Assembly (NCBI GenBank): GCA_964535955.1
Contig: CAZHVK010000011.1
Coordinates: 1-40,092 of the forward strand
Length of the DNA: 40,092 nucleotides
From: an uncultured Methanosarcinales archaeon
Lineage (GTDB): Archaea; Nanobdellota; Nanobdellia; Woesearchaeales; CAXGTL01
Direction: 5' to 3'
Shown here piece by piece: positions 135 through 32,220 of this stretch (positions within the stretch are counted from its first letter, which is position 1; every line of letters starts with the position of its first letter). The notes beneath the pieces were generated by a model, which was given only the letters and a program-made list of their open reading frames with translations, did no database searches and was not told the DNA's origin. A program made the position numbers and the translations under genes.

Positions 135-311
135 GTGTTAGTGCAACCCTTGCCTGTAAGGCCAGTGAACCAATGTTAGTGTTCGTCAGAATACATTGAT
201 GCTCAATTAGACATGTCAGAAATACAGAGTATTTCTGATCATGCTCAGAAACCTTTGGTTTCTGACATTACATAGACATTGAACAGGTGAACGAAAGGGT
301 TGTACCAACAC
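135..311. repeat. Structured dispersed element family 1, copy A (carries a nested family-2 insertion)
   Basis: 17-bp imperfect terminal IR (GTGTTAGTGCAACCCTT/AAGGGTTGTACCAACAC). The core GCC-loop-GGC-CAGTGA ... GAACGA is shared with the copies at 25685, 29543 and 32108. Confidence 0.85.
213..268. repeat. Double-hairpin palindromic element family 2, copy 1
   Basis: ATGTCA-hairpin-TGATCATGCTCA-hairpin-TGACAT. Absent from the equivalent loop of family-1 copy D. Confidence 0.85.
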
Positions 312-357
312 CACTTCCGATAACTTAATATACTACATCAACCAAATCAGTGCAATC

Positions 358-894
358 ATGAAACAATCATTTAACAAAGCTGTTATCCAAGAACCAGCAT
401 TAGTTGCTCTACTAACAGCTGCAATGGAAGTATATCCAAAAGAAACATTTGGCTTAGTATTTGGCTCCAGGTTTAAGAAAAAGTTCATAATCAAGAATGC
501 TCTTACATACCAAAATGCAACTAGAAAAAAGAATGAAACAAGCATCTGGCCTGCACAAGAAAGAAAAGTAAGGTATGTTTTGAATGAAGTTTCTGGTTAT
601 TCAATAATTGGTGATTTTCATTCTCATCCAGAAGATACTTGTTCTTTAAGCAAACATGACAAAAAAGATATGATTGAGGATGGTGAACATTTTGCAATAC
701 TTATTTCTGTATTTGAATGGGATGAAAAAGTTAAGTGGCACTATGATAAAAAAGAAAAATTTATTGAAGGCACTATTCATTCTGGTGATTTTCTTATTAA
801 TATTAAGGCTTATTACAGAGAGCCTGGAACAAGAGTAATTAGAAAATTGAGATTAGATTGTCCTAGTTTGAGGAAATTGAATAAGTGGTTTTGA
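358..894 (+). CDS. JAB/MPN (JAMM) domain metalloprotease
   Basis: N-terminal E (YPKETFG) plus HSHP-x5-S-x2-D JAMM motif (GDFHSHPEDTCSLSKHD). Confidence 0.85.
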   Translation: MKQSFNKAVIQEPALVALLTAAMEVYPKETFGLVFGSRFKKKFIIKNALTYQNATRKKNETSIWPAQERKVRYVLNEVSGYSIIGDFHSHPEDTCSLSKHDKKDMIEDGEHFAILISVFEWDEKVKWHYDKKEKFIEGTIHSGDFLINIKAYYREPGTRVIRKLRLDCPSLRKLNKWF

Positions 895-940
895 TATTTC
901 TACAATTATCACGAAAAACAACCAAAACACTTATATATTA

Positions 941-962
941 CATATGATAACATCATCATATG
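941..962. promoter_or_regulatory. Putative ArsR operator
   Basis: Inverted repeat CATATGA-N8-TCATATG between a TTATATA box and the ArsR start codon. Confidence 0.55.
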
Positions 963-1262
963 ACAACAAAATCATATAATGCATTCTTTATGAACTTTGC
1001 TAATAATGCTAGATTCAAGATTATCATGGCACTTCGGAAAAAGGAGTTAAGTGTTACAGAAATATGTAAAGAGACTAACCAAGAGCAAAGCAGAGTATCT
1101 CATCATCTAAAATCAATGGAAGGATGTAATATACTTAATGTTAAACAAGATGGTAGGTGGAGGGTGTACTCATTAAACAAAGAAACTGTAATCCCAATTC
1201 TAAAATTAATAGAAAAACACATAAAGAAATATTGCAGAGGGTGTGATAAACATGAAATCTAA
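960..1262 (+). CDS. ArsR/SmtB family transcriptional regulator
   Basis: R-x2-I...LSVTEI...QSRVSHHLK...GRWRVYSL winged-HTH pattern; C-terminal CxxC. Confidence 0.9.
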   Translation: MTTKSYNAFFMNFANNARFKIIMALRKKELSVTEICKETNQEQSRVSHHLKSMEGCNILNVKQDGRWRVYSLNKETVIPILKLIEKHIKKYCRGCDKHEI

Positions 1263-2427
1263 ACAAATATATCTAGATAATGGAGCTTCAACCAAAGTTG
1301 ATCCATTAGTAGTTCAAGAAATGAATAAATATCATTCAGAAGAATATGCAAATGCATCATCAACACACACATTTGGACAAGATGCAAAGCAAGCTCTGGA
1401 AAATGCTCGGAGGAAACTTTCAAAACTGTTAAAAGCAAAATCAGAAGAAATAGTTTTCACATCAGGAGGCACAGAATCAAATAATTTTGCAATCAAAGGG
1501 ATTGCATTTGCAAACAAAGACAAGAATCATATAATCACAACAAAAGTTGAACACAAGTGTGTATTAAAAAGTTGTAAATGGTTAGAATCACAAGGCTTTG
1601 AAGTCACATACATAGATGTAGACAGCAAAGGATTTGTTAGAGTTGAAGATTTAGAAAATGCAATAAAACCTAACACAATTTTGGTGAGCATAATTCATGG
1701 TAATAATGAGATTGGCACTATTCAAAATCTTGAAGAATTATATAAAGTTTGTAAAAGCAAAGGTGTTTATTTACACACAGATGCATGTCAATCATTTACA
1801 AAAACACCAATAACATCAGAACATGCAGATTTGATAACATTAAATGCTCACAAAATACATGGACCAAAAGGTGTTGGTGCTTTGTTTATTAAGTCTGGAG
1901 TAAAAATCAGTAATTGGCAACATGGTGGTGACCATGAATTTGCAATGAGAGCTGGAACTGAGAACATACCAGGAATCATAGGCTTTGTTAAAGCTGCTGA
2001 ATTAGCAATGAATAAAAAACATATTGAACACATGACAAGACTTAGAGATAAGTTAGTGGAAGGAGTTTTAAAAATAGAAGGTGTTAAATTAAATGGACCT
2101 AGAGAAAATAGATTGTGCAACAATGCAAACTTTTCATTCAAAGCTGTTGAAGGAGAAGCATTAGGAGGATACTTAGACCAAAAAGATATTTGTTCATCTA
2201 CAGGCTCAGCATGTACTTCAAAAGTACTAGAGCCAAGCCATGTATTAAAAGGAATTGGTTTATCAGACGAAGATGCAAATGGATCATTAAGATTAACATT
2301 AAGCAGATTCACAACAGAAGAAGAGATAGATTATATTCTTATAGTTTTACCAAAAATAGTTAAAAAACTAAGGAGGATATCACCTATTGGTAAATTAATC
2401 CAAAATGTACTCAAAAAAAGTAATTAA
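1252..2427 (+). CDS. iscS: Cysteine desulfurase IscS/NifS
   Basis: IYLDNGAST, FTSGGTESNN, AHKIHGPKG (PLP lysine), STGSACTS (catalytic Cys). Start placed at the ATG after the GAGGGTG SD. Confidence 0.95.
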   Translation: MKSKQIYLDNGASTKVDPLVVQEMNKYHSEEYANASSTHTFGQDAKQALENARRKLSKLLKAKSEEIVFTSGGTESNNFAIKGIAFANKDKNHIITTKVEHKCVLKSCKWLESQGFEVTYIDVDSKGFVRVEDLENAIKPNTILVSIIHGNNEIGTIQNLEELYKVCKSKGVYLHTDACQSFTKTPITSEHADLITLNAHKIHGPKGVGALFIKSGVKISNWQHGGDHEFAMRAGTENIPGIIGFVKAAELAMNKKHIEHMTRLRDKLVEGVLKIEGVKLNGPRENRLCNNANFSFKAVEGEALGGYLDQKDICSSTGSACTSKVLEPSHVLKGIGLSDEDANGSLRLTLSRFTTEEEIDYILIVLPKIVKKLRRISPIGKLIQNVLKKSN

Positions 2428-2773
2428 ACATTTTACAGACCCAAAATTTGCAGGAGAATTAAAGAATCCTGATGCTGTCGGAGAAGTTGGTAATATGGCT
2501 TGCGGAGACATAATGAGAATCTATTTAAAAATTAAAAACAACAAAATAATAGACATCAAATTCTTAACATATGGATGCGCAGCTGCAATTGCAGCATCAG
2601 ACACAATGTGTCAATTAGCAAAAGGCAAGACTTTGGATCAAGCATTAAAGATAACTGCTAAAGACATTGCAAAAGAACTAGATAATCTTCCACCTGTTAA
2701 GTTTCATTGTTCTGTATTAGGTACAGAAGCTTTGAAAAAAGCAATTGATGATTATAAAAATAAAAAGAAATAA
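2405..2773 (+). CDS. iscU: Fe-S cluster scaffold IscU/NifU-N
   Basis: GNMACGD, YGCAAAIA and LPPVKFHCS motifs. Confidence 0.95.
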   Translation: MYSKKVIKHFTDPKFAGELKNPDAVGEVGNMACGDIMRIYLKIKNNKIIDIKFLTYGCAAAIAASDTMCQLAKGKTLDQALKITAKDIAKELDNLPPVKFHCSVLGTEALKKAIDDYKNKKK

Positions 2774-2776
2774 TAA

Positions 2777-2849
2777 AAACAGAACACCACCCAAGTATAG
2801 CTTCCTAACAGAACCAAGGGAGGGTGATCGGGGGAAAGGCCTGGTGGGG
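2777..2849 (+). repeat. G-rich dispersed repeat family 3, copy 1
   Basis: AAACAGA..CCCAAGTATAGCTTCCTAACAGAACCAAGGGAGGGTGATCGGGGGAAAGGCCTGGTGGGG; homologous copies elsewhere in the window. Confidence 0.8.
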
Positions 2850-2911
2850 ATTATAAACATAAAAACATAACAAACTTTAAATACCACTTAAATTTTTCTA
2901 ATAATAACACT

Positions 2912-3009
2912 GGAGGCGTGGCCAAGCAGCTAAGGCAAGAGGCTGCAATCTTTTGCAGAGCCCTCTGATCCCGGGTGCAAGACTAAATGTGCAAATCCCG
3001 GCGCCTCCT
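2912..3009 (+). tRNA. trnC: tRNA-Cys(GCA) with two introns (37/38: 2949-2960; 59/60: 2982-2995)
   Basis: Acceptor stem GGAGGCG/CGCCTCC, D stem GCC/GGC, anticodon stem AGAGG/CCTCT, anticodon GCA at 2945-2947, T stem CCGGG/CCCGG, discriminator U73. Both inserts fold into BHB/BHL splice motifs. Confidence 0.9.
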
Positions 3010-3019
3010 TACTATTTTT

Positions 3020-3508
3020 TTACATAGAATCTTCTTTAACTTTGTCATTCCAAGCTTTGTTTACTTTCCCAATTACTTTAACAACTTTAGGACAAAACTC
3101 TTTATTCCAAAACTCTACAGAATAATCAAGAAACTCTGCTTCTTTTTTCTTATCCTTTGTAAGACCAATCAAAGAATTATTACTGACATGAGCTAAAACT
3201 TTCCTCATCAGTTTAAGAATTTCTTCTTTTTCTTGTTCATCAAAAACTTTTGATTCAAAAACATTCATCATATTACCAGGATTAGGCAGCATCAAAGAAT
3301 GAAGATAATTATTCCATCCATTAAAAGTATCTAATATTCTTCTACAGATTCTTCTAGACAAAACATCACTAATATATCTGTCTGAAAGAATCATGTCTTT
3401 AAGAAAAAAATTTTCATCTAATTGTTTTAGAGTAGATTTAAATTTTAATTCTATTTTAATCTCTTTAAACTTTTCTTCAAAATCCTTTATCAATTGTTTG
3501 TTTGTCAT
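3020..3508 (-). CDS. Hypothetical protein
   Basis: 162-aa ORF with typical composition and a TATA box upstream; no motif recognised. Confidence 0.75.
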   Translation of the reverse strand: MTNKQLIKDFEEKFKEIKIELKFKSTLKQLDENFFLKDMILSDRYISDVLSRRICRRILDTFNGWNNYLHSLMLPNPGNMMNVFESKVFDEQEKEEILKLMRKVLAHVSNNSLIGLTKDKKKEAEFLDYSVEFWNKEFCPKVVKVIGKVNKAWNDKVKEDSM

Positions 3509-3551
3509 TTTAGTACTAGAATAACAATAGGATTTATAAATTTAACCTAAT

Positions 3552-5278: not shown

Positions 5279-5341
5279 AACATCAAGAGAGAATCTGTAT
5301 TTTATAAAGTTTTATATATAATAGGACATAATACAAAGAAT

Positions 5342-6301: not shown

Positions 6302-6302
6302 T

Positions 6303-6335
6303 AAACAGACTCTAAGCCCAAGTACAGCTTTCTAA
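6303..6335 (+). repeat. Family 3 repeat, 5' half only
   Basis: AAACAGACTCTAAGCCCAAGTACAGCTTTCTAA matches the 5' half of copy 1 and sits right after a stop codon. Confidence 0.55.
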
Positions 6336-6377
6336 AAATTGAAAAATATAGCCCAAAAACCCAAACCTTTATATATC

Positions 6378-6398: not shown

Positions 6399-7163
6399 AT
6401 GATAAGCAAAATAAGCAAAGGAAGCAGGATGGACCAGATTTATATACCTAAGACAAGGATTCCAGGATATGAAATAGGCAAAACCGTATTGATAAAACCA
6501 ATAGAAGAAACAAGAACAATCACACCATTCTATTATAATATTAAGAAAATAGAGCCAGTAAAAAACATAATAATTGAAAAGATTCTTAATCATCTACATT
6601 ATGTTGATAATCTTATAATAACAGGCTCATTCTTAGATAAAGGTTTTCATTTTCATGATATTGATCTTATTATAATTGATGATAAGAAATTGAATTTAAA
6701 TAAAATAAGAAAAGATTTGGAAAAACTAGCAGGGATAGAGTTTCACATAATCCAATTAAATAATAAAACATTATTACAAGGCCTTAACACAGATCCATTG
6801 TTCCAAGCAATGTTAAGCAAATTTGTCTCAAAAAAGAGATTAGTCTATAAAATTAGAAAACAGATTAACTACAAATTACTTGACTTACACTTATTAAAAA
6901 GCAAAACTTTGATCCATGGATTTGATTTCCTCAAAGGCCATGAAAAATATAATTTGATCAGAAACATGATCGCAATCGATTTATTTTTAAAAGGTAGAAA
7001 GATTACAACAGAAAACATAAACAGAGAAATAAGAAAGCATTTTAAGGTTGATATTAAAGATATAAAAGAAAATATAATAGATAGGACAATAATAAATAAA
7101 TACAAGAAAAAACATAAGAAATTATTTAACAAGATAATGAGGGGCCTTAAAATTGGTTCATAA
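6399..7163 (+). CDS. AbrB-like DNA-binding domain fused to a Pol-beta-type nucleotidyltransferase
   Basis: N-terminal KISKGSRMDQIYIPK...GKTVLI (AbrB-like); central ITGSFL...DIDLIII (GS..DxD). Confidence 0.65.
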   Translation: MISKISKGSRMDQIYIPKTRIPGYEIGKTVLIKPIEETRTITPFYYNIKKIEPVKNIIIEKILNHLHYVDNLIITGSFLDKGFHFHDIDLIIIDDKKLNLNKIRKDLEKLAGIEFHIIQLNNKTLLQGLNTDPLFQAMLSKFVSKKRLVYKIRKQINYKLLDLHLLKSKTLIHGFDFLKGHEKYNLIRNMIAIDLFLKGRKITTENINREIRKHFKVDIKDIKENIIDRTIINKYKKKHKKLFNKIMRGLKIGS

Positions 7164-9796: not shown

Positions 9797-10570
9797 TCAT
9801 TTCTTCACAACAAAAAACTCTTCATTACCTAGCACAAACCTTTTTACCAGTTTCCAACCATTTCTTTCAGCCATAAACTTTAACCAATTATTTTGTCTGT
9901 AATTCATCTTTTTTCCAGACATTGTCTTTAATGGAAACGAGATAATCAACCACTTACTTCTTACTTTGTTTAATAATTTCTCAGATTCTTTATGATGCTT
10001 AGAAAGATCTATGTGGTTAAGAAGTTTGAACATAAAACACACATCTGTTTTTGGTAATTTTTTTACAGAAAGTAAGTTGACTGACTTAGTATCTAAGAAA
10101 TCTATGTGTAATTTAAGAAAATCCAGATCAGGCTTGCTTATGTCAAATGCATAATATTTCACATTATCAAGATCCATGAATTTGAATGACAAAGGATTAA
10201 AACCACACCCCAGGTCAAGCAATGATTTAGGAATACCTGTTGTCTTAAACAATTCTTTGTAAAGTTTATAGTAGATTGGCAATCTTTCTTTGGTTGACTT
10301 ATGAATCTTTAACAATTTATCAATATCTTTTATCTTATTTTTCTTAAAATAGTTTTTTAAAATAAACATACCATATGCTCTATGAAGGATTGCTCTGATA
10401 TCTTTAACAACTTTTTTCCATACCTTTTTCTTGACTTTATCTTCACCTAATTTTTTCAATAGTTTAGGATGAAGTTTGAAGTACTTGTCTAAGTGGAATT
10501 TGACAAAATCATTATCTACATTTTTCAATGTTTTCTTTTTTTTAATCTCTCTGATAAGTTCTTCATACAT
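9797..10570 (-). CDS. FmrO/RmtB/ArmA-like 16S rRNA m7G methyltransferase homolog
   Basis: HKSTKERLP, LLDLGCGFNPLS, ISFPLKTMSGK and GNE motifs characteristic of the family. Confidence 0.75.
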   Translation of the reverse strand: MYEELIREIKKKKTLKNVDNDFVKFHLDKYFKLHPKLLKKLGEDKVKKKVWKKVVKDIRAILHRAYGMFILKNYFKKNKIKDIDKLLKIHKSTKERLPIYYKLYKELFKTTGIPKSLLDLGCGFNPLSFKFMDLDNVKYYAFDISKPDLDFLKLHIDFLDTKSVNLLSVKKLPKTDVCFMFKLLNHIDLSKHHKESEKLLNKVRSKWLIISFPLKTMSGKKMNYRQNNWLKFMAERNGWKLVKRFVLGNEEFFVVKK

Positions 10571-16135: not shown

Positions 16136-16147
16136 ATTAGCCTCACC

Positions 16148-16200
16148 TGTCAAAAACTTTGTTTTTGATCATGATCAGAATTCCTTTGGAATTCTAACAT
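16148..16200. repeat. Family 2 double-hairpin element
   Basis: TGTCAAAAAC-TTT-GTTTTTGATCATGATCAGAATTCC-TTT-GGAATTCTAACAT. Confidence 0.8.
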
Positions 16201-17032: not shown

Positions 17033-17132
17033 ATAATTCACCTCTTATTTTTAATATATCATGATTTTAACATAAAATATGCCACAACATACATATTTAT
17101 GTATATCTTATTTATATATGTTTCTATTTAAA

Positions 17133-17188
17133 ATGTCAAAAATCATAGATTTTTAATCATGATCATAAATGCTCTGCATTTATGACAA
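17133..17188. repeat. Family 2 double-hairpin element
   Basis: ATGTCAAAAATC-ATA-GATTTTTAATCATGATCATAAATGC-TCT-GCATTTATGACA. Confidence 0.8.
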
Positions 17189-17264
17189 CCTTGCGATTGT
17201 TTTAAGTATAATTTAGCTAAAACAAACCGATACATTTAAAAAGGAAAATCAAAAACCAATATAC

Positions 17265-19204: not shown

Positions 19205-22200
19205 TTATTTATGATGTTTATGTTTTTTATGTTTTTTATGTTTTGTATGACTTGTTCTATGTTTTACTTTATTTGTTTTGTGTTTGGAGTGTTTTGTATG
19301 CTTTTTATGATGTTTACTTTTCTTATGTCCTTTACGCTTTTTTCTCATATAAACAAGAATAATAAAACCAATAACCAAAGTAATAAACAATACAATCAAT
19401 AATCTCCTAATATTAATATTATCCATAAATTTAACAGGTTCATGCACTTCTGGTGTAATCTCTTCACAAGCATCACAAACACCACCACAGTCAATACCTA
19501 TTTCATCCTGATCCAATATACTATTATTACAAAGATTTACAGGAATTTCACAAGCATCACAAACACCACCGCAATCAACACCTGTTTCATCTTGATTCTT
19601 TTTATCATCATCACAACTAGGTTTGACAACAACAGGATCAGTTTCATTATCATCATTTTTATCAGTACATCCTGGATCTTTTAGATCAAACAATTTGTCT
19701 CCATCATTATCAATATTATCATTACACTGTTTTGGTACAAAACCTCCACCAGAGCCGCCGCCTCCGCCGCCTCCGCCGCCAGAGCTTCCACCACCTCCCC
19801 CACTAGGAACACTTGGTTTTGGTTTAGGCTTTGGAATAACAAATTCAATAACAGCGCTGTGTTTTAATCCAGAAACAACAAACATTTTTTCATATAATTG
19901 ACAAACATATTCTGCTTTTGTTCCAGGACATTTTACAATTATCTCATTTTTACCTTTACAAGAAGAACTAACATCTGAGATTGCTGCTGTTTCTTGATCT
20001 TTTACACAAACAGCATTAGAACTAGGGTGTTTTTTCTCAACATAAAATATTTTGCTTACATTAGTTATATTTAAACCTTTTAAAATAAAATAAGATTTAG
20101 AATCAGATTCTTTTTGTTTTTCAATCTCAACACTTGACAAATTAATATAATCTATCTCAGTAGTATTATGTATCTTAACTTTAGCAATTGTTTTATTATC
20201 ATGCAACAGTGCAAGTTTTGTTGTTTTTTTCAAATCATCATTTACATCAGACTCATTACTTGGCACAACATAACTCGTTGCATTAGTTTTGCTCATATTA
20301 ACTTGTGTTTCATAACAATCTATTTCACATGTCTTGAAATTCTCTCCTTGTTCACAAATATTATTACCACAAAGAACACAATCATTATCTAAAGAATCAA
20401 CAAGAGTATCACAATCATTATCAACAGAATCACTACATACTTCACTAACACCAGGATTCACAATTGCATTATTATCATCACAATCAGCACCACCTTTATC
20501 TAAAGCATCAAAACCATCATTATCATCATCAAAATCACAATCATTATCCAAAGAATCAGTAAAACCATCACAATCATCATCAAGGTTATTATCACAAACT
20601 TCATCACTGATTTTACTAGAAGCAACACATTGTTTATCCCATTTACCAAGCACACATAATTGTTCAATTGTTTTAGAACAAGCACCTACACCACATGACT
20701 GTGTTTGTTTTGCATTATCTATGCAATCACATCCTTCATCAATACCACCTACACAATTATTATCAATTCCATCACATATTTCTATTGCACTAGGATTAAT
20801 ACTAGCATCTTCATCATAACAATCATCACCACCATATTCAACAGAATCATATCCATCATTATCAACATCTTTATTCACACAATCAGGATCTAAAGAATCA
20901 ACCAAATCATCACAGTCATTATCAATAGTATCGTCACAAATTTCAGAAGCTGCAGGATTTATCTGTGGACTAGTATCATCACAATCATCACCACCTAGAG
21001 CAACAGAATCATAACCATCATTATCATTATCAAAATCACATTCATCACCAAAAGCATCACCTTGTTTTGTTGTCTTGATTACCCATATATCACGACCACC
21101 AGCTCCAAAAGAATCACTATATCCACCAATTATATAACTTTCATCAACTAATTGTTGAACAGTTGTACCAAAATCAAAACCAGTACCTCCAAATGTTTTA
21201 TCCCATTGTTTATTACAATCACCGCCTGTTTTAATTACCCAAACATCATTACCACCTTTCCCCTTAGAATTTGTCCATCCAGTTATAATATATCCATTAT
21301 CAGATGTTTGATCAAGGGACCAGCTTCGTTCATTTCCAGTTCCACCAAAAGTCTTATCCCATTCTTTGTTTCCAGCAGAATCTGTTTTGATTAACCAAAT
21401 ATCTTCACCACCTGCACCATAAGAATTAGTATATCCTGTCATTATATATCCTGAATCAGATGTTTGTTGAACAAATTCACAAAGATCTTCACCTGTTCCA
21501 CCAAAAGTCTTATCCCATTCTTTATTTCCATCAACATCTGTTTTNNNNNNNNNNNNNNNNNNNNNNNNNNNNNNNNNNNNNNNNNNNNNNNNNNNNNNNN
21601 NNNNNNNNNNNNNNNNNNNNNNNNNNNNNNNNNNNNNNNNNNNNCACCTGTTCCACCAAAAGTCTTATCCCATTCTTTATTTCCATCAACATCTGTTTTA
21701 ATTAACCAAACATCTTTACCACCTGAACCAAAAGATGTTGTTTCTCCTGTTATAATATATCCATTATCAGATGTTTGTTGAACAAATCTAGCAAAGTCTT
21801 CACCAGCACCACCAAAAGTCTTTTCCCATTCTTTATTTCCATCAACATCTGTTTTGATTAACCAAACATCTTTGCCACCTGAACCAAAAGATTCTGTGCC
21901 GCCTATTAACACATATCCATTATCAGTTGTTTGTTGAACAGACATAACACCATCATTATTTGCAGCACCAAAAGTTTTGCTCCATTCTTCATCACCATTA
22001 GCATCTGTTTTAATCAACCAAACATCATCATCACCTGAACCAAAAGATGCTGTAACTCCTGCAATAATATATCCATTATCAGATGTTTGTTGAGCCAACC
22101 AACCAATATCTCTACCTGCTCCACCAAATGTTTTATCCCATTGTTTATTTCCTGAAGAATCTATTTTTACTAACAATGCATCCATTGCTGTATCAGGAGA

Positions 22201-23679
22201 GAGTATAATTCCTGCTATTATATATCCATTATCAGAAGTCTGGTCTAGAGAAAACAACATTTCCCAATTAACACCACCAAATGTTTTATCCCATTCTTTT
22301 TTAGGTACAAGATCACTATTTGTTTGTAATGGATTAGACACACCAAGACAATTATCACAAGAATCATCAACACCATCATTATCATCATCTTTAATAGCAG
22401 CACAATCACTATCCAATACATCAACCATGCCATCACAGTCATTATCAATAGTATCATCACAAACTTCAGAAGCTGCAGGATTTATCTGTGGACTAGTATC
22501 ATCACAATCATCACCATTATTATTCTCATCAACATAACCATCATCATCTTTATCAAAATCACAATCACTATCCAATACATCAACCATGCCATCACAATCA
22601 TTATCAACACCATCACTGCAAAGATCAACAGTATTTTCATCAACCTTATTCTCAATCTTTGGCAAACATACAGCAGGAACCCATTCACCAAGCACACATT
22701 CAAGAGCATCTTTATTTTGACACACACCATCACCACAATCAACTTCTTGTGTTAATCCAGTCACGCAATCACATTCTTCATCTTTTGTTCCATCACAATC
22801 ATCATCAATATCATTGCACAAAGCATTTTGTTTTTCATTAAAATTATCCCTTGGATAAACACCAGCATTAGTATCATCACAATCTAATTTATCAGAAAAC
22901 TCAGGTTTTTCACAAGTCTCATCATAAAACCCATCTTCATCAGAATCAACACATTCTGGTTCTGGTTCAACAAGTACAAGTTTATCATTATCAAACATCT
23001 TAATCATATAACCTGTATCAGGTTTAAATTGTTTCAAAGTATTGAAACGAACTGGTATGCTAGGATCATAAACATAAACATCATCAGGACCAAATTCCCT
23101 GATAACTACAATATTAGACTTAATTGGTTCAATTGTTTCAGTAACATCAACTATTTCATCACCTAAGTAAGGCATCATGTTCCAGCCTTTATGAAGTGTT
23201 ACACTTTTATCAGTGAGAGGTAAACCATCAATTGTTAGTGATGCTGCATTCTTCATCTTTATTTGATAAGCTTTACCACCTACAATTGTCTGTAAAGTAT
23301 TGAATCTAGATGGAATTAAGGGATCATAAACATAAACATCTGTTTCTGCAAATTCTCTGATAACAACAGCATCATTTATAACAGATGCTAATGCTTGATC
23401 AATCTCTTTAACATCAGGATCTAATGTAATTGGTAAAACATTCCAACCTTTATGCAATGATAATGTAATCTGATTATCAGATGCAATATCATTAGATAAA
23501 GTATCATCAAGAGCTCCAACCAAAGGCACACCTGCAGACTCAACAGGCGCAGCAATCATTCCTGTCAAACCATCACCAAAGCCAAGAGAAACAAAATAAA
23601 TAAAAAAAATCACTAATACCAATAGACCAAGGATTATAAAACTATCTTGCAAATCCTTTTTCATACTTGTTTTTTCCAT
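19205..23679 (-). CDS. Giant cell-surface protein (one gene, split by the assembly gap)
   Basis: N-terminal TM, MopE-like DCDD..P.A.E.CD..DNDCDG repeats, WDKTFGG beta-propeller repeats, Gly/Pro linker, ETGVDCGG repeats, C-terminal TM and His/Lys tail. The same repeat continues across the 100-N gap at 21545-21644. Confidence 0.8.
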
Positions 23680-25684: not shown

Positions 25685-25796
25685 ATATGTGGTAAGCGCC
25701 AATTGGCCAGTGAGTGCACACGCAAATTGTTAAACTGTAAGGGCTTCCCATATGAGGATAAATCAATTGGAAAGCACGAACGAGCTTGCCACATAT
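25685..25796. repeat. Structured element family 1, copy B
   Basis: IR ATATGTGGTAAGC/GCTTGCCACATAT; GCCAATTGGC-CAGTGA-GTG ... CAC-GAACGA. Confidence 0.85.
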
Positions 25797-26467: not shown

Positions 26468-26494
26468 AATAATATGATGTAGAATTACTTATAC

Positions 26495-27133
26495 TTAAAC
26501 CTTATGATAATTACAAATACTAATAGGCTTTCGATTTTCACACTTAACATTACTAGGTCTTTGACAAAAATAATTACTACCAAAAGCTTTACCTGAATAA
26601 GGACAAAGATTTGGTTTAGAATCTATAAGTTTATTAACTATCCTTAATAGGCTAGTATCAAGACCATGAACAATCTTATTTAATTTATCAGGAAGGATAT
26701 AAAAACTTGTATTCTTAAGATAATCTCTTTTTTTCATATTTTCTTTATCAGTTAAGACCAAAAGTGGAATTCTATACAAATCTCCTTTACCTAGTTTATA
26801 TCTAAGAACATCAACAAGATCAAAATATTTTTGTCTAGGAACAAATAATGCTTTTTCACTTCCAACAACTTCCTCAGCATCGACCAATGTTGACACAATC
26901 AGGTCAGGATTATCATTTTCAATCTCATAAATAATTCCTTTATAAATTTCATCTAAAAGATTATTATCACTCACACTACGCCTTCCCTCAAATGTATAAA
27001 AATCATATGATGTCTGAAGAAATGGTTTTTGTTCATACCACCACATATAAACAGAAAACATTGCCTTGATTTCATAATACAATTGTTTTGGCGCAACAAA
27101 TATCTTTTTTTTTTGTTTTTTTACCATTAACAA
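26495..27133 (-). CDS. Hypothetical protein, possibly a degenerate receiver-like fold with C-terminal Cys cluster
   Basis: NPDLIV and IPLLVLT resemble receiver-domain strands; no clear phosphoacceptor Asp. Confidence 0.55.
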   Translation of the reverse strand: MLMVKKQKKKIFVAPKQLYYEIKAMFSVYMWWYEQKPFLQTSYDFYTFEGRRSVSDNNLLDEIYKGIIYEIENDNPDLIVSTLVDAEEVVGSEKALFVPRQKYFDLVDVLRYKLGKGDLYRIPLLVLTDKENMKKRDYLKNTSFYILPDKLNKIVHGLDTSLLRIVNKLIDSKPNLCPYSGKAFGSNYFCQRPSNVKCENRKPISICNYHKV

Positions 27134-27163
27134 TTAATAATCAGTAATCATTTATATTAATTT

Positions 27164-27691
27164 CTAGACTAGAACATAGACATAAAGTTCTTCAAAAAAG
27201 ATCTTTTGTTTTGCAACTTGTTTAAATTTAAAACCAGATTTTCTGATAAATTCTTCAACCTTTTTCTTTTTAGTCAATGATGAAAAAAGAAGTAACACTT
27301 TACCATTTGTTTTTAAAAAATCTTTTAATTCACATAAAAACTTCTGAATCAATTCATAACCTTTTTTTCCACCATCAAGAGTAATATCCTTGAGCTTGAC
27401 ATCTTCAGGCAGATATGGTGGATTAAATATAATCAAATCAAACTTTCCAGTAATATTAGAAAATAAATCAGAAACCATATACTTAATTTTTTTATCATGA
27501 TTTTCTCTTTTTAATTTTGCAATAACACCTCTCTGTACATCAACAGCAACCACTTTTTTACAATACTTAGCAGCTTCTTTAGCTAATATCCCAGAACCAG
27601 TCCCCATATCTAAAACAATATCATTAGGTTTACAATATTTCTTGATCTGTTTTTGCAGTAAAAATGAATCCCCTCTAGGTTCATATATCAT
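27164..27691 (-). CDS. HemK2/MTQ2 family protein methyltransferase
   Basis: IYEPRGDSFLL, LDMGTGSG and FNPPYLP motifs. Confidence 0.9.
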   Translation of the reverse strand: MIYEPRGDSFLLQKQIKKYCKPNDIVLDMGTGSGILAKEAAKYCKKVVAVDVQRGVIAKLKRENHDKKIKYMVSDLFSNITGKFDLIIFNPPYLPEDVKLKDITLDGGKKGYELIQKFLCELKDFLKTNGKVLLLFSSLTKKKKVEEFIRKSGFKFKQVAKQKIFFEELYVYVLV

Positions 27692-27746
27692 GATAGATTA
27701 ATGTATTAAGCAGAAGTATTTATAGTTTTTGTAAAAAAAAGAACAA

Positions 27747-27873
27747 ATGTCAAGAACCACCGGTCAATAGACCGGTGGCATGAAGCGAAAGCTTCATAAC
27801 AATCTATAATGACCAGTGGTTCTTGATCATGCTCAGTATACCACCAGTCTATTGACTGGTGGTATACTGACAT
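27747..27873. repeat. Family 2 element, expanded form with nested hairpins
   Basis: ATGTCA...TGATCATGCTCA...TGACAT frame; arms contain CCACCGGTC-AATA-GACCGGTGG and CCACCAGTC-TATT-GACTGGTGG. Confidence 0.8.
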
Positions 27874-27942
27874 ATTAAATAAACATAAGAGAAATAAAAA
27901 GAAATCAAAAAAAACAAAAAGAATTAAAAAAAATAAAAAATC

Positions 27943-28404
27943 TTATGTAGCACACTTACCTTTCAGCTTGTGACCTTCTCCTGTAAATGTATATGATGCA
28001 TCAGTTTCATCATCAGTGTATGTGATACTTACATCATAATTATAATTGTCTCCTGCACTTGCACATGTCATTGCACCACCACAATCAGTTGTTTGACCTG
28101 CTCCTAAACTTGTTTCATCACATGTTAGAGCAACATTGTTAACTGTTACTGTCAATGATGAGATAGCATTTCTTTGATTGTTTCTGATTGATGTATTCAA
28201 TACATCTGCTGCTGCTGAAACAGCATAACTTTGTATTGCAATGTCTGCTGTGTCCCAGAATGATTTAGATGCTCTTTCTTGTGCACCTGTACCAATACCA
28301 GGAATTCCTCCCATTGCTGCTACAACAATCAATGCAATTATGATAACAACTGCTAGAATTATCAGATATTCTGTTGCACCTTGTGCTTTTTTAAATTTAT
28401 CCAT
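27943..28404 (-). CDS. Type IV pilin-like protein (class III signal peptide)
   Basis: KKAQGATEYLIILAVVIIIALIVV; GAGGTGA SD. Confidence 0.85.
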   Translation of the reverse strand: MDKFKKAQGATEYLIILAVVIIIALIVVAAMGGIPGIGTGAQERASKSFWDTADIAIQSYAVSAAADVLNTSIRNNQRNAISSLTVTVNNVALTCDETSLGAGQTTDCGGAMTCASAGDNYNYDVSITYTDDETDASYTFTGEGHKLKGKCAT

Positions 28405-28545
28405 TTATTATCACCTCATGTTTTTTTAAATTAAAATAGCAATAAATAATAATAATAATAATAATATAAAGCCATTATTAATGATTATTAGAATCTTTAT
28501 ATATAAATATTTTGTTTTTTAAAGTGTTTTCTTATTTCTCTCCAC

Positions 28546-29013
28546 TTAATTACCACACTTACCTTCTAATTTATGTCCTTCACCAGTATATGTATATTCT
28601 GTATCTGTGTCTAAGTCTGTGTATGTAATACTAACATCAAAACTATATGCATCACCTGGACTGCAAGCTGTTACATCAATTACACCACATGTTGTTTGTT
28701 GGCCTGTTGATAAACTATTTCCACTACAAGTCATTTCTTGACCATCAACATACATATCACCCAATGATATACTATGATCTCTATTATTTCTTAAAGTAAG
28801 GTTCATGTTATCTGTAGCAGCTGAAACAGCATGAGTGATTACTGCAACATCTAATGTTTCCCAAAATGAGGAAGAAGTCCTTTGTCTTGTAGCAGTTCCA
28901 ATTCCTGGGATTCCTCCCATTACAGCAACTACAATCAAAGCAATGATTATAACAATTGCTAGAATTATCAGATATTCTGTTGCACCTTGTGCTTTATCAT
29001 TATTTAACATCAT
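28546..29013 (-). CDS. Type IV pilin-like protein, tandem paralog
   Basis: KAQGATEYLIILAIVIII; shares the YTD...GEGHKL.GKC C-terminus with its neighbour. Confidence 0.85.
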   Translation of the reverse strand: MMLNNDKAQGATEYLIILAIVIIIALIVVAVMGGIPGIGTATRQRTSSSFWETLDVAVITHAVSAATDNMNLTLRNNRDHSISLGDMYVDGQEMTCSGNSLSTGQQTTCGVIDVTACSPGDAYSFDVSITYTDLDTDTEYTYTGEGHKLEGKCGN

Positions 29014-29098
29014 ATTCACCTATTTTTACTTTATTGTTCTTATTATTTGTTTTGTGTTTTATAAATCTTTCTTTTATTTATATATAATCTCTGGGTTT

Positions 29099-29533
29099 TT
29101 ATTCTTTTAATTTATCTGTAATAAGCTTTTTTAATAATTTAATTATATGCTGATATTCTAACTTATTTCTGTCAAAAAACTCTTTTTTAACAAAAAAGCC
29201 TCTATAATCTATCTTATTCCTTATTTTTCTTAGTTCATCTATTTTTTCACATTCAAAATTTAAATCAGGATTTTGTTTTTCAAAATATCTTATTAAACAT
29301 TCATGATTAGAAGATGATAATGCATCAAGATTAAGATAAGCAGTCAATAATTCTTTGATTATTTCATAATAAGCTTCTACAACTAAAGAAGCAAATTTCT
29401 CTTTAATATTTTTACTTATAGGTTCCCAAAACTCTAGTCTTACTTCTATTAATTTCAACATATTTCTGACTCTTTCTTTGTCTTGTTCAATGTTTCTTAT
29501 TATTTTTTCACTATAGCATTTGTCTAATTCCAT
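29099..29533 (-). CDS. HEPN domain protein (paralog of 12330-12773)
   Basis: YYEIIKEL...NHECL...RNKIDYRG; GGTGA SD before ATG 29533. Confidence 0.8.
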   Translation of the reverse strand: MELDKCYSEKIIRNIEQDKERVRNMLKLIEVRLEFWEPISKNIKEKFASLVVEAYYEIIKELLTAYLNLDALSSSNHECLIRYFEKQNPDLNFECEKIDELRKIRNKIDYRGFFVKKEFFDRNKLEYQHIIKLLKKLITDKLKE

Positions 29534-29542
29534 TATTTCACC

Positions 29543-29657
29543 ATATGTGCATGGTTCGTTCGCACTTTCCAATTGATATAACAATGCACATGAAAACCCC
29601 TCGCTGTCTTACGATTCTCGTGGGTGCTCACTGGCCTTACAGGCACCATGCACATAT
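29543..29657. mobile_element. Structured element family 1, copy C, with direct repeats
   Basis: Perfect 13-bp IR ATATGTGCATGGT/ACCATGCACATAT; TATTTCACC repeated at 29534-29542 and 29657-29665. Confidence 0.85.
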
Positions 29658-29660
29658 ATT

Positions 29661-30185
29661 TCACCTAAATAATCTTAGATTACCACTTAATATAATCCCA
29701 TTTGTTATGTTATTCTTAAGCTCTTTACTCATGTATTTCAGATCCTTATCAAAAACTAGATGGATCTTTCTTTTGAGAATCTTTTCAAATTTATCAAGAT
29801 TGATTTTTTGTTGTTTTGACTGGATAAATATATCAATATCACTGTCTTTTACATCTGTTCCTTTTGCATAACCACCAAATAATATGATGACTTCTGGCAT
29901 TAGTTCATTATCTAGAAATTCAATTAAGCCTGATTCAGATATTTTAAGTTGATTAAATATTTTTTTGTATTTTTTGAAAATCTCATTTTCTGTATTTGAA
30001 TTGTAACTTTTGTATAATGTAGAAGTGTTAATCTTTATTAAACCTAGTTTAACCAGTTTTTTAAGATATATTAATACTGATTTATGTTCTAATTTGATCA
30101 TTCTACTGATCTGTCTTAATTGAAAATCTTTTATAGGATCATCAAAAAATACATTCAATACCTTATACAAATTATAATTACCCAA
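29661..30185 (-). CDS. HTH + minimal nucleotidyltransferase (paralog of 11806-12333)
   Basis: ILFGGYAKG...DSDIDIFI; N-terminal wHTH; TTG start uncertain. Confidence 0.85.
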   Translation of the reverse strand: MGNYNLYKVLNVFFDDPIKDFQLRQISRMIKLEHKSVLIYLKKLVKLGLIKINTSTLYKSYNSNTENEIFKKYKKIFNQLKISESGLIEFLDNELMPEVIILFGGYAKGTDVKDSDIDIFIQSKQQKINLDKFEKILKRKIHLVFDKDLKYMSKELKNNITNGIILSGNLRLFR

Positions 30186-30189
30186 TATC

Positions 30190-30248
30190 TGGTTTATTTT
30201 TACACCACCTGTTGAATTATTTCACCACATGGTGTAAACTAACACCAG
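30190..30248. promoter_or_regulatory. Inverted-repeat operator region of MNT-HEPN pair 2
   Basis: CTGGT..TTTACACCA ... TGGTGTAAA..ACCAG just downstream of a minus-strand TTTATATA box. Confidence 0.5.
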
Positions 30249-30298
30249 AACTATATAAATCTTTCTATTATTTTAATAGAATTCTGATAAATCTTAAC

Positions 30299-30472
30299 TT
30301 ATTTCAGTTTCTTAAGTTCTTTCTGCTTTTGTTTAAGTACTTTTTGAGCTTCTTTAATATTCTCTTGCAAAACTTTAATATAATACTTAAGATATTGTTT
30401 TCTATTCATGTGTTCAACTTTGTCTACTTCTGGTAATAAGTTTCTTCTTGTTTTTTTGATCTTTAGTTTCAT
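30299..30472 (-). CDS. Small basic coiled-coil protein (57 aa, below the ORF-track cutoff)
   Basis: MKLKIKKTRRNLLPEVDKVEHMNRKQYLKYYIKVLQENIKEAQKVLKQKQKELKKLK, translated by hand; AGGT upstream. Confidence 0.55.
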   Translation of the reverse strand: MKLKIKKTRRNLLPEVDKVEHMNRKQYLKYYIKVLQENIKEAQKVLKQKQKELKKLK

Positions 30473-30481
30473 TTTACCTAA

Positions 30482-30554
30482 CCCGCCAAGACCTTCCCCC
30501 GGCCACCCACCCCTGGTTCAATAAGGACTAAGTTCTTGGGTTGTGATCTGTTTT
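30482..30554 (-). repeat. Family 3 G-rich repeat
   Basis: Minus strand AAACAGATCACAACCCAAG...GAACCAGGGGTGGGTGGCCGGGGGAAGGTCTTGGCGGG. Confidence 0.8.
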
Positions 30555-30569
30555 TATTTATTATTATAT

Positions 30570-30607
30570 TTGCCCTTTATTTTATAAGATTTAATTGTAA
30601 AGGGTAA
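30570..30607. promoter_or_regulatory. 38-bp palindromic site downstream of fic
   Basis: TTGCCCTTTA-N18-TAAAGGGTAA; second copy at 31657-31694. Confidence 0.65.
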
Positions 30608-30614
30608 ATTATTT

Positions 30615-31622
30615 TCACACCAAAAAATTGTTCCAATAATTATCAATCAATTCTTTAGTTATAAAATTGACTACTTTTTTGAAATATTTAGGATCATTTT
30701 TATTTAAATCTATCTTATTTGCTTTTGATAGTGCATCTAAATATTCATTCCTTTTTGAATTTCTTATAATTATGGGTGGGTATTTTTTTCTCATCAATAA
30801 ATAATTCATGACCATTCTTCCTGTTCTTCCATTTCCTTCTGCAAATGGGTGTATTCTTTCAAATTTTTGATGAAACAAACTTGCTAATATTAATGGATGA
30901 AACTTTCTTTTATTTTTCTTAAGCCATTTCAACAGAATGTTCATGTCAATCTTTATATATTTTGCAGGAGAAGAATCAAATCTCGATCTAAATACTCTAA
31001 CATCATGTGTTCTATAACCTTTTCTTATATCAATATCCTGCATTAATTTATCATGTATCTTGATTATTAGTTTGTTGTTTATTCTTGCTTTTGAGTCTAT
31101 TAATTCAAAAAATAATTTTTCTGTGTTTTGAAGATCATAAACTTCTCTTAGTGTCTTGTTTTTTGGTGTCAGATTTTCTGTTAAAAGTTTTTGTGTTTCT
31201 GCTAATGATATTGTATTACCTTCTATTGAGGTTGTGTTGAATGCAAAATCTATCAAGAAATTTTTAAAAACATCTTTTTTAGTTAAATCATCTAGTTTTA
31301 AGAATACTTCTTTATAGTGTAATCTTATTGCTTCTATTTGTTCAATTACTTCTTTGTCAAGGTATTCACTTTTCTTGATCTTTAATGTTTTTGCTTTTTT
31401 AAGAAAATATTCAGATTCAATATGTTTTTTTATATTTCTGTAAGTTTTTTTAATCTCTTTTTGATATTTTTTAGGCAAATTATCAAGTTTTTTTTGGATT
31501 TTAGAAACATCACTGCCTAAATAAGCAATATCTTTTACAATTGTCTTATTTTTTACTTTTTTTGATATTCTTAAATAATAATAAGGTTTCCCATTTATTG
31601 TTTTTTTGTATAAATAAGCCAT
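30615..31622 (-). CDS. Fic family protein with N-terminal beta-rich extension
   Basis: TTSIEGN and IHPFAEGNGRTGR Fic motif; N-terminal KKTINGKPYYYL. Confidence 0.92.
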   Translation of the reverse strand: MAYLYKKTINGKPYYYLRISKKVKNKTIVKDIAYLGSDVSKIQKKLDNLPKKYQKEIKKTYRNIKKHIESEYFLKKAKTLKIKKSEYLDKEVIEQIEAIRLHYKEVFLKLDDLTKKDVFKNFLIDFAFNTTSIEGNTISLAETQKLLTENLTPKNKTLREVYDLQNTEKLFFELIDSKARINNKLIIKIHDKLMQDIDIRKGYRTHDVRVFRSRFDSSPAKYIKIDMNILLKWLKKNKRKFHPLILASLFHQKFERIHPFAEGNGRTGRMVMNYLLMRKKYPPIIIRNSKRNEYLDALSKANKIDLNKNDPKYFKKVVNFITKELIDNYWNNFLV

Positions 31623-31656
31623 ATTTAATATGAATAGTAGAACTTATATATAAATC

Positions 31657-31694
31657 TTACCCTTTATTTTCCTGAATCCACTTGTAAAGGGTAA
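31657..31694. promoter_or_regulatory. 38-bp palindromic site upstream of fic
   Basis: TTACCCTTTA-N18-TAAAGGGTAA adjacent to the fic TATA box. Confidence 0.65.
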
Positions 31695-31970
31695 TTATTT
31701 ATCTAATATATCATCAATCAATCCCAAAACATGGTCAATTTCTTTATGTACTCTTTTTTCCCAGAGCTTTATTTCAATTATTTCTTTTTTTAATTTTCTT
31801 TGTTTTTTATGTAATAATGACTCTTTTTTTTCTAATTGTTTGACTTTTTTGATTAGAAGTTGTTCTTTTCCTTTTCCACCTAGATTCTTTTTGCTTTTGT
31901 TTTTGGTTATTTTTCTAGATTTAGGTTTAGTCTTTTTCTTTTTAGTAGACTTTTTCCTCTTTTTTGACAT
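31695..31970 (-). CDS. Lys-rich coiled-coil hypothetical protein
   Basis: 91-aa ORF with a TATA box upstream. Confidence 0.6.
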   Translation of the reverse strand: MSKKRKKSTKKKKTKPKSRKITKNKSKKNLGGKGKEQLLIKKVKQLEKKESLLHKKQRKLKKEIIEIKLWEKRVHKEIDHVLGLIDDILDK

Positions 31971-32005
31971 GTTATTAATTTAATCTTACTCATATATAAA
32001 CTTTA

Positions 32006-32047
32006 CCCACATACTCCTCCCCCACCACCCTCCCTTGATTCTGTTAG
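32006..32047 (-). repeat. Family 3 G-rich repeat (3' part)
   Basis: Minus strand CTAACAGAATCAAGGGAGGGTGGTGGGGGAGGAGTATGTGGG. Confidence 0.75.
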
Positions 32048-32107
32048 TAAATATACAGAAAACTATAAATACTATTCAAACATTAATAAAATAAAAAAGA
32101 GGTAAAG

Positions 32108-32220
32108 TATGTTCATGGCTCGTTCGCATGCTCTATATTTATCTAATGTCTAATAGAGCACCTATGAAGTCTAACGAATCGAGCTATTGCTTACTGGCCA
32201 ATACTGGCGCCATGAACATA
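32108..32220. repeat. Structured element family 1, copy D
   Basis: Perfect 12-bp IR TATGTTCATGGC/GCCATGAACATA; TCGTTC-GCA ... TGC-TTACTG-GCC-AATACT-GGC. Confidence 0.85.

Follow-up and report, generated by a model that had tools for sequence, protein, structure and literature searches.

Bacterial MITEs (miniature inverted-repeat transposable elements) whose fold is conserved at the RNA level include the ERIC/IRU sequences of enterobacteria, the Correia/NEMIS repeats of Neisseria, and the RPE of Rickettsia; each is essentially a single long, imperfect hairpin bounded by conserved terminal repeats, and the majority duplicate a short target, often TA. IS200/IS605-derived elements (PATEs, REP/RAYT) have no terminal inverted repeats, do not duplicate the target, and insert beside a fixed motif of 4–5 nt. 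Integron attC sites, which have been reported in archaea, share a single orientation within cassette arrays next to an integrase, with one site per cassette, and produce no target duplication. To our knowledge, none of the known single-strand DNA transposons (IS200/IS605, IS91, and Helitrons) makes a target duplication, and we know of no SINE-like retroposon in archaea.

The window analyzed here (the whole stretch of 40,092 nt) contains four repeats that are copies of a ~110-nt non-coding, non-autonomous mobile element family of Woesearchaeota/Nanoarchaeota-type (DPANN) archaea (Table 1). Their identity as copies of a structured mobile element is all but certain. Insertion takes place in intergenic DNA, with 8–10 bp of target duplicated, occasionally up to ~12 bp. 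As for the way in which the element is mobilized, we see about an even chance that it is a non-autonomous MITE-like element recognized as a folded single strand in a replication-linked manner.

The element resembles ERIC/IRU, Correia/NEMIS, and RPE in its size of ~100–150 bp, intergenic location, non-coding nature, and large number of copies, as well as in its pairing ends, target duplication, and compensatory changes in hairpins. It differs from them in having a branched fold of five helices whose asymmetric junction is invariant, a closing helix variable in both sequence and length, longer duplications (8–10 bp), and an archaeal host. [quoted passage not shown] These features contradict a previous sequence-only reading of the window, which considered a classical HUH (IS200/IS605-type) substrate. 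With attC sites the element has in common the conservation of structure over sequence, and, putatively, recombination as a folded single strand with replication-strand effects; however, its copies lie dispersed and in both orientations, each has a duplication of its own, and the window encodes no integrase. Like SINEs such as Alu, it is a short structured unit with variable duplications and no conserved terminal cleavage motif, presumably relying on an enzyme from elsewhere, whereas no internal promoter is apparent, an A-rich or partner-derived tail is missing, the helix ends are blunt, and the ORFs examined included no reverse transcriptase.

Table 1. Copies of the element and target-site duplications in the window (all read directly from the DNA)
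Feature	Positions	Strand	Length (nt)	Covariance model match	Score (bits)	Remark
Copy 1	135..311	+	177	140-306(+)	71.6	
Copy 2	25685..25796	+	112	25686-25795(+)	90.8	
Copy 3	29543..29657	-	115	29544-29656(-)	91.9	
Copy 3 target-site duplication, left	29535..29542					plus strand ATTTCACC
Copy 3 target-site duplication, right	29658..29665					same 8-mer as 29535-29542
Copy 4	32108..32220	-	113	32108-32220(-)	101.8	best-scoring copy

The four copies had been located by the sequence-only reading at the same positions. The covariance model (R1), with a seed of 37 sequences comprising 34 from other genomes and copies 2–4 of the window, was run over the whole window with filters off and returned exactly these four sites, with a runner-up at 12.9 bits (E = 0.18). 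Copy 1 represents an independent match since it was absent from the seed alignment. A composite core pattern matched copies 2–4 with a chance expectation of 0.00 in the window, and the string CGAACGA occurred there 4 times, compared to 0.13 expected. The copies are 2.5–25 kb apart and lie in both orientations. Both strands fold better than shuffled sequences, with z-scores from −2.5 to −7.2 in single-sequence folding (−6.7 for copy 1 and −4.6 for copy 4).

In copy 1, positions 135–151 pair with 295–311 to form the closing helix P1, and the GCC-loop-GGC core is followed by CAGTGA; its greater length is due to 64 nt in the loop of arm B in the model match, and this arm bears a nested insert of 56 nt at ~213–268. 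Copy 2 lies upstream of a MazE/AbrB-like gene on the minus strand, whose ATG is 13 nt away, and is antisense to both neighbors. Copy 3, with a blunt P1 of 13 bp, lies in the sense orientation between a pair of genes on the minus strand, and the GGTGA ribosome-binding motif of the gene starting at 29533 on the minus strand falls within its left duplication. Copy 4 has CAGTAA in the junction and occupies a divergent intergenic region, with an ATG at 32231, 11 nt off; its flanking repeat is weak (GTAAA, 32102–32106 and 32221–32225).

All copies can adopt a common single-strand fold of five helices, consisting of P1, P2, a junction, P3, and two arms. P1 is formed by both element ends and extends over 12–18 bp; judged by eye, the clear cases have 13–18 bp and roughly half of them are blunt, the terminal bases are not conserved, and several P1 types coexist in one genome, DAOWKC01. 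In the model, P1 comprises 11 pairs with 92.8% of cells paired, and its outer part is partly conserved (consensus auugaaaacguc). P2, a 3–4-bp hairpin GCC-loop-GGC, is stacked directly on P1. The junction is nearly invariant, with CAGUGA facing GAACGA, and P3 has 3 bp. Arm A is tipped with a U-Y-GNNA-R-A mini-hairpin, in which the Y-R pair is C-G in 31 of the 51 known copies and U-A in 18; the loop motif TYTNACRA noted previously on the opposite strand is real and corresponds to this mini-hairpin of the GA-rich strand, with its covarying Y-R pair. Arm B has 7–9 bp and an AT-rich loop.

The sequences of the helices vary freely among the copies while pairing is retained. In the alignment of 51 copies, 95.3% of 1,477 cells pair, compared to 28.0%–44.5% after sliding the partners by 1–3 columns, and the covariation score is 0.80 versus 0.06–0.12 for the slid partners, a value reached in 0 of 500 shuffles. 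The proposal that the fold is under selection, made from four copies, is very strongly supported by the 51 aligned copies, and the covariation persisted with more homologs; the variants of the 3-bp stem, the covarying arm, and the mixed orientation were also described correctly. Double changes occurred in 23 of 29 predicted pairs in a MAFFT-only alignment. P3, arm B, and the tip of arm A, which lie 60–70 nt apart within the element, all covary. On the GA-rich strand, 38 G.U pairs were counted against 19 A.C, an excess of just 2:1 obtained on an alignment fitted to that strand. Evolution has preserved the fold and not the sequence of the ends, a hint that the element may move in an unusual way that depends on its shape.

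Forty of the 51 copies carry the exact junction core, and in 2 copies CAGCGA is paired with GAGCGA, representing a U-A to C-G double change. From this change we infer that the junction consists of two Watson-Crick pairs with flanking G.A pairs, and a k-turn or loop-E arrangement was dropped. The three-way junction with purine-rich conserved strands superficially resembles the type III hammerhead and could belong to a new self-cleaving ribozyme carried by the mobile element. This is highly improbable: the junction strands pair together, as follows from the double change, no Rfam ribozyme family was matched even at E ≤ 10, and, the copies being insertions of DNA that duplicate the target, cleavage would have no evident role. 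The sequence-only reading did not recognize the element as hammerhead, twister, pistol, hatchet, or HDV, and no known ribozyme class matches; its suggestion of a possibly ribozyme-like RNA is not supported, as nothing else points to cleavage.

Of the 46 loci returned by a scan, 35 were archaeal. The covariance model identified 47 further copies on 35 contigs from 14 Woesearchaeota/Nanoarchaeota-type genomes, making 51 copies together with those of the window, while the 11 bacterial chance loci contained no copy according to the model. The copies range from 110 to 177 nt in length, and all of them are intergenic. Their density is 4 per 40 kb in the window and 12 per ~120 kb in one MAG, and the element accounts for ~1% of the sampled sequence despite the very small size of DPANN genomes. 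Coding of a small protein was ruled out since the frames differ from copy to copy (by eye, short reading frames shift between copies 2–4). Rfam 15 gave 0 matches at the gathering score over the window and nothing overlapping copies 2–4 at E ≤ 10; copy 1 had just 11.8–18.5-bit matches, with cut-offs of 43–49. A tRNA scan found none, and blastn of copy 4 against phage and plasmid collections yielded no match. An origin from 5S rRNA, tRNA, or SRP-Alu was ruled out by the order of helices and the lack of an Rfam match. No description of the element family was found in the literature; the supplementary MITE lists of PMC11602168 may contain copies.

Mobility of the element, proposed previously, is evidenced by target-site duplications, which the sequence-only reading had missed. 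Copy 3 is flanked by a perfect 8-bp duplication. Flanking repeats matching at 9/9 positions were found in 13 of 51 copies, compared to 26 of 3,000 (0.9%) mismatched flank pairs, and those matching at no fewer than 8/9 in 22 of 51 copies (10% of mismatched flank pairs); exact repeats of at least 8 bp flank 11 of 51 copies versus 65 of 2,000. The duplication length is possibly subfamily-dependent, being, by eye, 9–11 bp in the GGGTCTGTCCC type and 8–9 bp in the TATG type. As for empty orthologous sites, whose search had been suggested, the orthologous spacer in locus L012 is empty opposite a filled site in locus L023. In locus L036, syntenic with the window at ~75% identity, a copy lies upstream of the L10e gene; none is present there in the window (17042–17264), but the intergenic DNA is not alignable and this was not accepted as a clean empty site. 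In L040 and L017, the insertion positions in one intergenic region differ by ~58 nt, indicating that independent insertion into one intergenic region occurs.

The orientation of copies shows no bias relative to gene direction, with 10 sense and 10 antisense in tandem-gene contexts. An apparent sense bias relative to the downstream gene (28 versus 13) is an artefact of divergent-region scoring, which skews this count and leaves only the tandem contexts informative. Orientation is linked to strand composition. Regression of flanking GC skew, taken as an assumed proxy for replication direction and measured on 20-kb pieces, against coding fraction gave an intercept of −0.084 ± 0.013. This gene-independent skew of the element strand is −0.084 for all positions and −0.21 for third codon positions (95% confidence intervals from bootstrapping by genome, −0.128 to −0.027 and −0.323 to −0.056, respectively); it lies below zero in 13 of 15 genomes and is opposite in 2. 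The window as a whole has a skew of just −0.02 to −0.03. Since orientation follows strand composition independently of genes, the single strand that is recognized would most likely be replication-fork DNA.

Our best guess is a single-strand, replication-linked mechanism. An enzyme encoded away from the element would move it in trans, reading the folded single strand by the invariant three-way-junction core and the base of P1, while the terminal sequence would not be read. The strand, most likely DNA that becomes accessible at the replication fork, would then be joined into a staggered target cut. Several observations count against single-strand recognition: target-site duplications are a mark of double-strand staggered insertion, a possible dependence of duplication length on subfamily would fit several cognate DDE transposases, and the partial conservation of outer P1 is as in the terminal repeats of a diverging IS family.

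The same observations suit an ordinary MITE that depends on DDE transposases encoded in another part of the genome, or in a host or virus. P1 would then be the terminal inverted repeat, changing on both sides as each subfamily tracks its own transposase, and the inner fold would be a side effect or act on transcripts only. The element does have several properties of MITEs, being short and non-coding, with terminal inverted repeats, duplications of the target site, and many dispersed copies, and a MITE census reports a Woesearchaea genome carrying 105 MITEs per Mb (PMC11602168). This explanation nevertheless appears rather unlikely. It explains neither why P3, arm B, and the tip of arm A covary nor why the junction is invariant and asymmetric, and symmetric ends leave the orientation bias relative to strand composition unexplained. 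In addition, the many P1 types in one MAG (four contigs, ~1.3 Mb) would require many transposases, while none was found in ~0.5 Mb of flanks. The earlier statement that the element is unlike an ordinary DDE MITE gains some support from the unconserved termini of P1, the several P1 types in one genome, and the strand-linked orientation.

The co-occurring transposase, reverse transcriptase, or HUH gene that had been suggested was found neither among the window ORFs nor among the 216 flank ORFs (230–620 aa, Pfam E ≤ 1e-20, ~0.5 Mb of flanks), the latter including 2 tyrosine-recombinase matches. The Pfam cut-off was strict, with about half of the flank ORFs having no family at E ≤ 1e-20, and the lack of an enzyme in the window and ~0.5 Mb of flanks is weak evidence. 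Searches of the loci for orphan 5′ and 3′ halves of a longer autonomous version yielded a few isolated strings resembling the core, none of which had a partner to match, P1 12-mers with one mismatch allowed produced only noise, and among inverted repeats of at least 14 bp spaced 0.6–4 kb nothing was IS-like.

Eleven copies begin within 15 nt past a co-oriented stop codon and would be transcribed as a 3′ UTR. This location would suit a SINE-like retro-mobile RNA, in which a transcript reading through the element is cut back to the base of P1, bound via the core that is invariant, copied by reverse transcription, and inserted at a nick, generating duplications of variable length. Such a pathway is consistent with an element ending at the base of a variable-length helix without conserved terminal bases, with duplications from 8 to ~12 bp, with covariation in every helix, and with the prevalence of G.U over A.C pairs; LINE-type insertion is also replication-strand-biased. 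We consider it improbable, since no internal promoter is apparent and a 3′ tail is absent, no reverse transcriptase was found in the window or in the scanned flank ORFs of 230–620 aa, and 18 of 41 classifiable copies have divergent promoters on either side and lie upstream of both TATA boxes, a location in which they probably escape transcription.

Movement of a folded DNA strand, which we prefer, has also to be weighed against a benefit to the host. In L046 and L028, copies occupy the same orthologous site between convergent genes, with flanks ~70%–80% identical. P3 and arm B, along with part of P1, differ wholly between them but still pair, while the junction is kept, differing in L028 solely by the paired CAGCGA/GAGCGA substitution. 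Such a pattern could be expected if a non-coding RNA or cis structure useful to the host (a protein-binding RNA, 3′-end structure, or insulator) had been spread by transposition and is now selected at each site. Likewise, 94.3% of cells are paired in copies without a detectable duplication compared to 96.5% in those with a clear one, but copies were found via the conserved core, which left decayed copies unsampled. A role of this kind is quite improbable given the equal numbers of sense and antisense copies, the location of many copies upstream of both neighboring promoters, the lack of an apparent promoter of its own, and the independent insertions in L040 and L017.

A broader version of single-strand recognition would include a second hairpin-built family from the same genomes. 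Both would be moved by machinery that sees only a folded single strand, with an invariant three-way-junction core and any closing helix, inserts in a replication-strand-specific manner, and retains target duplication. This is unlikely, and no transposon class is known to combine these traits; if true, it would represent a new pathway of single-strand DNA transposition or a SINE-like retroposon, the first in archaea. Should the mobilizing enzyme read the fold, the element would be a natural case of structure-guided DNA insertion, and the covariance model would offer a handle for finding the enzyme by co-occurrence. If it is an ordinary MITE, an annotation model is gained that prevents these repeats from being mistaken for RNA genes. 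Elements inserted immediately upstream of core promoters or abutting stop codons mark dispensable intergenic bases in compact genomes, and the strand bias could mark replication direction in fragmentary MAGs.

Two copies with unpaired ends were found 500 nt apart in L019; if they moved as such, pairing of P1 is not needed. According to the inverted-repeat search, the copy L019:9982 bears the 3′ end type of L019:7382.

On the GA-rich strand, the layout described in the sequence-only reading was present at all four sites of the window, the sequence of each having been read. The two ends of the element pair to form the closing helix P1, immediately 3' of which stand GCC, a loop of 4–6 nt and GGC (the P2 hairpin), and then CAGTGA, which is replaced by CAGTAA in copy 4. 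The first strand of a 3-bp stem (P3), two arms (A and B) and the second strand of that stem follow, and GAACGA with the second P1 strand ends the element. The composite core pattern matched copies 2–4 at a shuffle expectation of 0.00, CGAACGA occurred four times in the window against 0.13 expected, and single-sequence folding of the copies was more stable than that of shuffles on both strands (z from −2.5 to −7.2). Thus, chance is ruled out as the cause of the repeats. Rfam 15 gave zero matches at the gathering score across the window and none overlapping the copies at E ≤ 10, and an ARAGORN search of the window revealed no tRNA. The window is archaeal and carries genes for L10e, TFIIE-alpha, NOG1, and a class III signal peptide.

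A core-pattern scan of GTDB species genomes yielded 46 loci, 35 of them archaeal, on contigs from 14 MAGs or SAGs titled Woesearchaeota, Nanoarchaeota/Nanoarchaeia or "uncultured archaeon." Three carriers were MAGs titled "uncultured Methanosarcinales archaeon" (loci L002, L006, L012, L018, L023, L026, L030, L035, L036, L040, and L045); this label looks doubtful, since every other carrier is titled Woesearchaeota, Nanoarchaeota or unclassified archaeon. A covariance model was built from a MAFFT alignment of 37 pattern matches, with copy 1 left out of the seed. Searched against the window and all 46 loci (732,619 bases) at E ≤ 0.001, it found 51 copies. None lay in the 11 bacterial loci, whose ends were unpaired, and these are therefore chance matches. 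With filters off, exactly four copies were found in the window (101.8, 91.9, 90.8, and 71.6 bits; next match, 12.9 bits), copy 1 being recovered with its arm B loop enlarged by a 64-nt insertion.

RNAalifold predicted 29 pairs on the MAFFT alignment (37 sequences), with double changes that kept pairing in 23 of them. In the 51-copy alignment, which was fitted to the covariance model and with which the MAFFT-only alignment agrees in direction, standard pairs filled 95.3% of 1,477 cells versus 28.0%–44.5% with partners slid by 1–3 columns, and double changes affected 24/29 pairs. The covariation score was 0.80; slid partners scored 0.06–0.12 and shuffles 0.20, and 0.80 was attained in none of 500 shuffles. 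The earlier observation that P1 differs between copies yet still pairs was borne out by covariation at all 11 P1 pairs, and that of a covarying 3-bp stem and arm by three P3 pairs and all seven arm B pairs. The fourth P2 pair (A-U in 24 copies, U-A in 21) and the Y-R pair beneath the GNNA loop (C-G in 31, U-A in 18) also covaried; the lower stem of arm A was weak but co-changing by eye (e.g., CCC/GGG, UUCC/GGAA, CCAAU/AUUGG). The junction, CAGUGA opposite GAACGA, was exact in 40 copies, and in two CAGCGA was paired with GAGCGA, a U-A to C-G double change. From these two copies and the junction invariance, we infer that the junction strands would form two Watson-Crick pairs between them, bordered on each side by G.A pairs. 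G.U exceeded A.C on the GA-rich strand (38 versus 19), which hints modestly that the constraint lies on this strand.

The copies are insertions. A perfect 8-bp direct repeat bounds copy 3, and one of its copies contains the ribosome-binding motif for the gene that begins at 29533. The best flanking 9-mer matched at 9/9 in 13/51 copies versus 26/3,000 mismatched flank pairs and at no less than 8/9 in 22/51 copies versus 10% in the null; exact flanking repeats of at least 8 bp were found in 11/51 copies versus 65/2,000. By eye, duplications measured 8–9 bp in the TATG-type subfamily and 9–11 bp in the GGGTCTGTCCC-type subfamily, and two with ambiguous borders were as long as 12–13 bp. The search for an empty orthologous site produced one filled/empty pair: in L023 the element and its two flanking duplications fill the interval from stop codon to start codon, and the L012 spacer is just 6–8 nt. 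P1 spans 13–18 bp and, among the clear cases, ends bluntly in about half; conservation does not extend to any terminal di- or trinucleotide, and one MAG holds several P1 types.

At E ≤ 1e-3, none of the 53 window ORFs encoded a transposase, reverse transcriptase, HUH protein or integrase, the nearest hint being a 63-aa HTH below the cut-off. Of 241 flank ORFs of at least 230 aa, the 216 of up to 620 aa were searched at E ≤ 1e-20, where about half had no family; two Phage_integrase matches (248 and 268 aa) were obtained and nothing else relevant. No co-occurring transposase, reverse transcriptase or HUH gene, for which the sequence-only reading advised looking, was seen beside the copies in either set; for reverse transcriptase this counts against the rival of a SINE-like retro-mobile RNA. 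Neither orphan element halves that pair up nor IS-like inverted repeats were found.

Orientation was shared within 9/11 multi-copy loci. Regression of flanking GC skew on the element strand against coding fraction gave an intercept of −0.084 ± 0.013. Splitting genes by orientation isolated a gene-independent skew on that strand of −0.084 over all positions and, for third codon positions, −0.21 (95% CI from a bootstrap by genome, −0.128 to −0.027 and −0.323 to −0.056), negative in 13/15 genomes. GC skew of this kind generally marks replication direction and may do so in these genomes. On small counts, third codon positions of the plus strand of the window are rich in C except in one segment of reversed skew, which holds minus-strand copies 3 and 4 and may be inverted.

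The element is mobile, structured, and non-autonomous. On the side of an ordinary MITE moved by a DDE enzyme, conventional staggered-cut insertion is suggested by the target duplication and by an outer P1 that is partly conserved. The internal covariation, asymmetric invariant junction, variable-length helix ends, and gene-independent strand bias together point to the folded single strand as what is recognised. A trans-acting enzyme would then read the folded form, with DNA at the replication fork as its most likely substrate, a proposal to which we give an even chance. Its rivals are the ordinary DDE MITE, the SINE-like RNA and an RNA kept by the host. A MITE census (PMC11602168) mentions a MITE-rich Woesearchaea genome; no description of the element family was found in the literature searched, and the supplementary lists of that census may already include these copies.

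All copies are intergenic, and six overlapping a called ORF by >30 nt look like over-long ORF calls. The 41 classifiable copies lay between divergent (18) or convergent (3) genes or in tandem sense (10) or antisense (10) positions. Copies were placed ~15–20 nt upstream of TTTAWATA-type boxes and ~50 nt from start codons or, failing that, within 15 nt of stop codons. Our reading of this placement is that it is the only space tolerated in compact genomes rather than a signal of function.

The interpretation leaves two observations unexplained: two divergent copies at one orthologous site in two species and two L019 copies with unpaired ends. The L046 and L028 copies, both flanked by convergent genes, have one orientation and share a homologous duplication. 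Their junction is kept save the paired CAGCGA/GAGCGA change in L028; the sequences of P3, of arm B, and of part of P1 are unlike yet paired, which could reflect gene conversion, a hot spot or compensatory evolution in place. Two lower-scoring L019 copies, flanking a single small minus-strand gene, combine the 5' end of one P1 type with the 3' end of another, leaving P1 unpaired; the intact copy at L019:7382 has a 5' end matching their 3' end, and they are probably recombinants. The L013 inverted repeats, which the covariance model did not call, may represent a related element with another core.

Positions of element copies, second-family repeats, and other features
Feature	Sequence	Position	Remark
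Element copy 1	window	135–311	plus strand
Element copy 2	window	25685–25796	plus strand
Element copy 3	window	29543–29657	minus strand
Element copy 4	window	32108–32220	minus strand
8-bp direct repeat	window	29535–29542; 29658–29665	bounds copy 3
Reversed third-codon GC skew	window	26500–33200	
Element copy	L046	9989–10100	
Element copy	L028	8572–8684	
Element copy	L019	9982–10102	51 bits
Element copy	L019	10523–10634	48 bits
Inverted repeats	L013	~6773–6883	12 nt, ~100 nt apart, P1 type as in L012
Second-family repeat	window	213–268	56 nt, nested in arm B loop of copy 1
Second-family repeat	window	~16147–16200	
Second-family repeat	window	~17150–17190	partial
Second-family repeat	window	27747–27873	
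Second-family repeats	L013	~1700–1790; ~19975–20050	
Block upstream of L10e gene	window	17089–17133	~45 nt
Block upstream of L10e gene	L036	~9921–9965	89% identical to window
745-aa genes	window	19205–21442; 21442–23679	adjacent, MopE-type metal-binding motifs

A second small repeat family consists of two hairpins (ATGTCA, stem 1, TGA; TCATG(C/A); TCA, stem 2, TGACAT), the stems of which vary between copies yet keep pairing; in a 127-nt version the first hairpin is branched. Rfam returned at most hairpin matches far below threshold for this family. L036, from one of the Methanosarcinales-titled MAGs, is syntenic with the window, and the block upstream of its L10e gene contains a TTTATATA-like box, the remaining spacer being unalignable. 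The two 745-aa genes look like a tandem pair.
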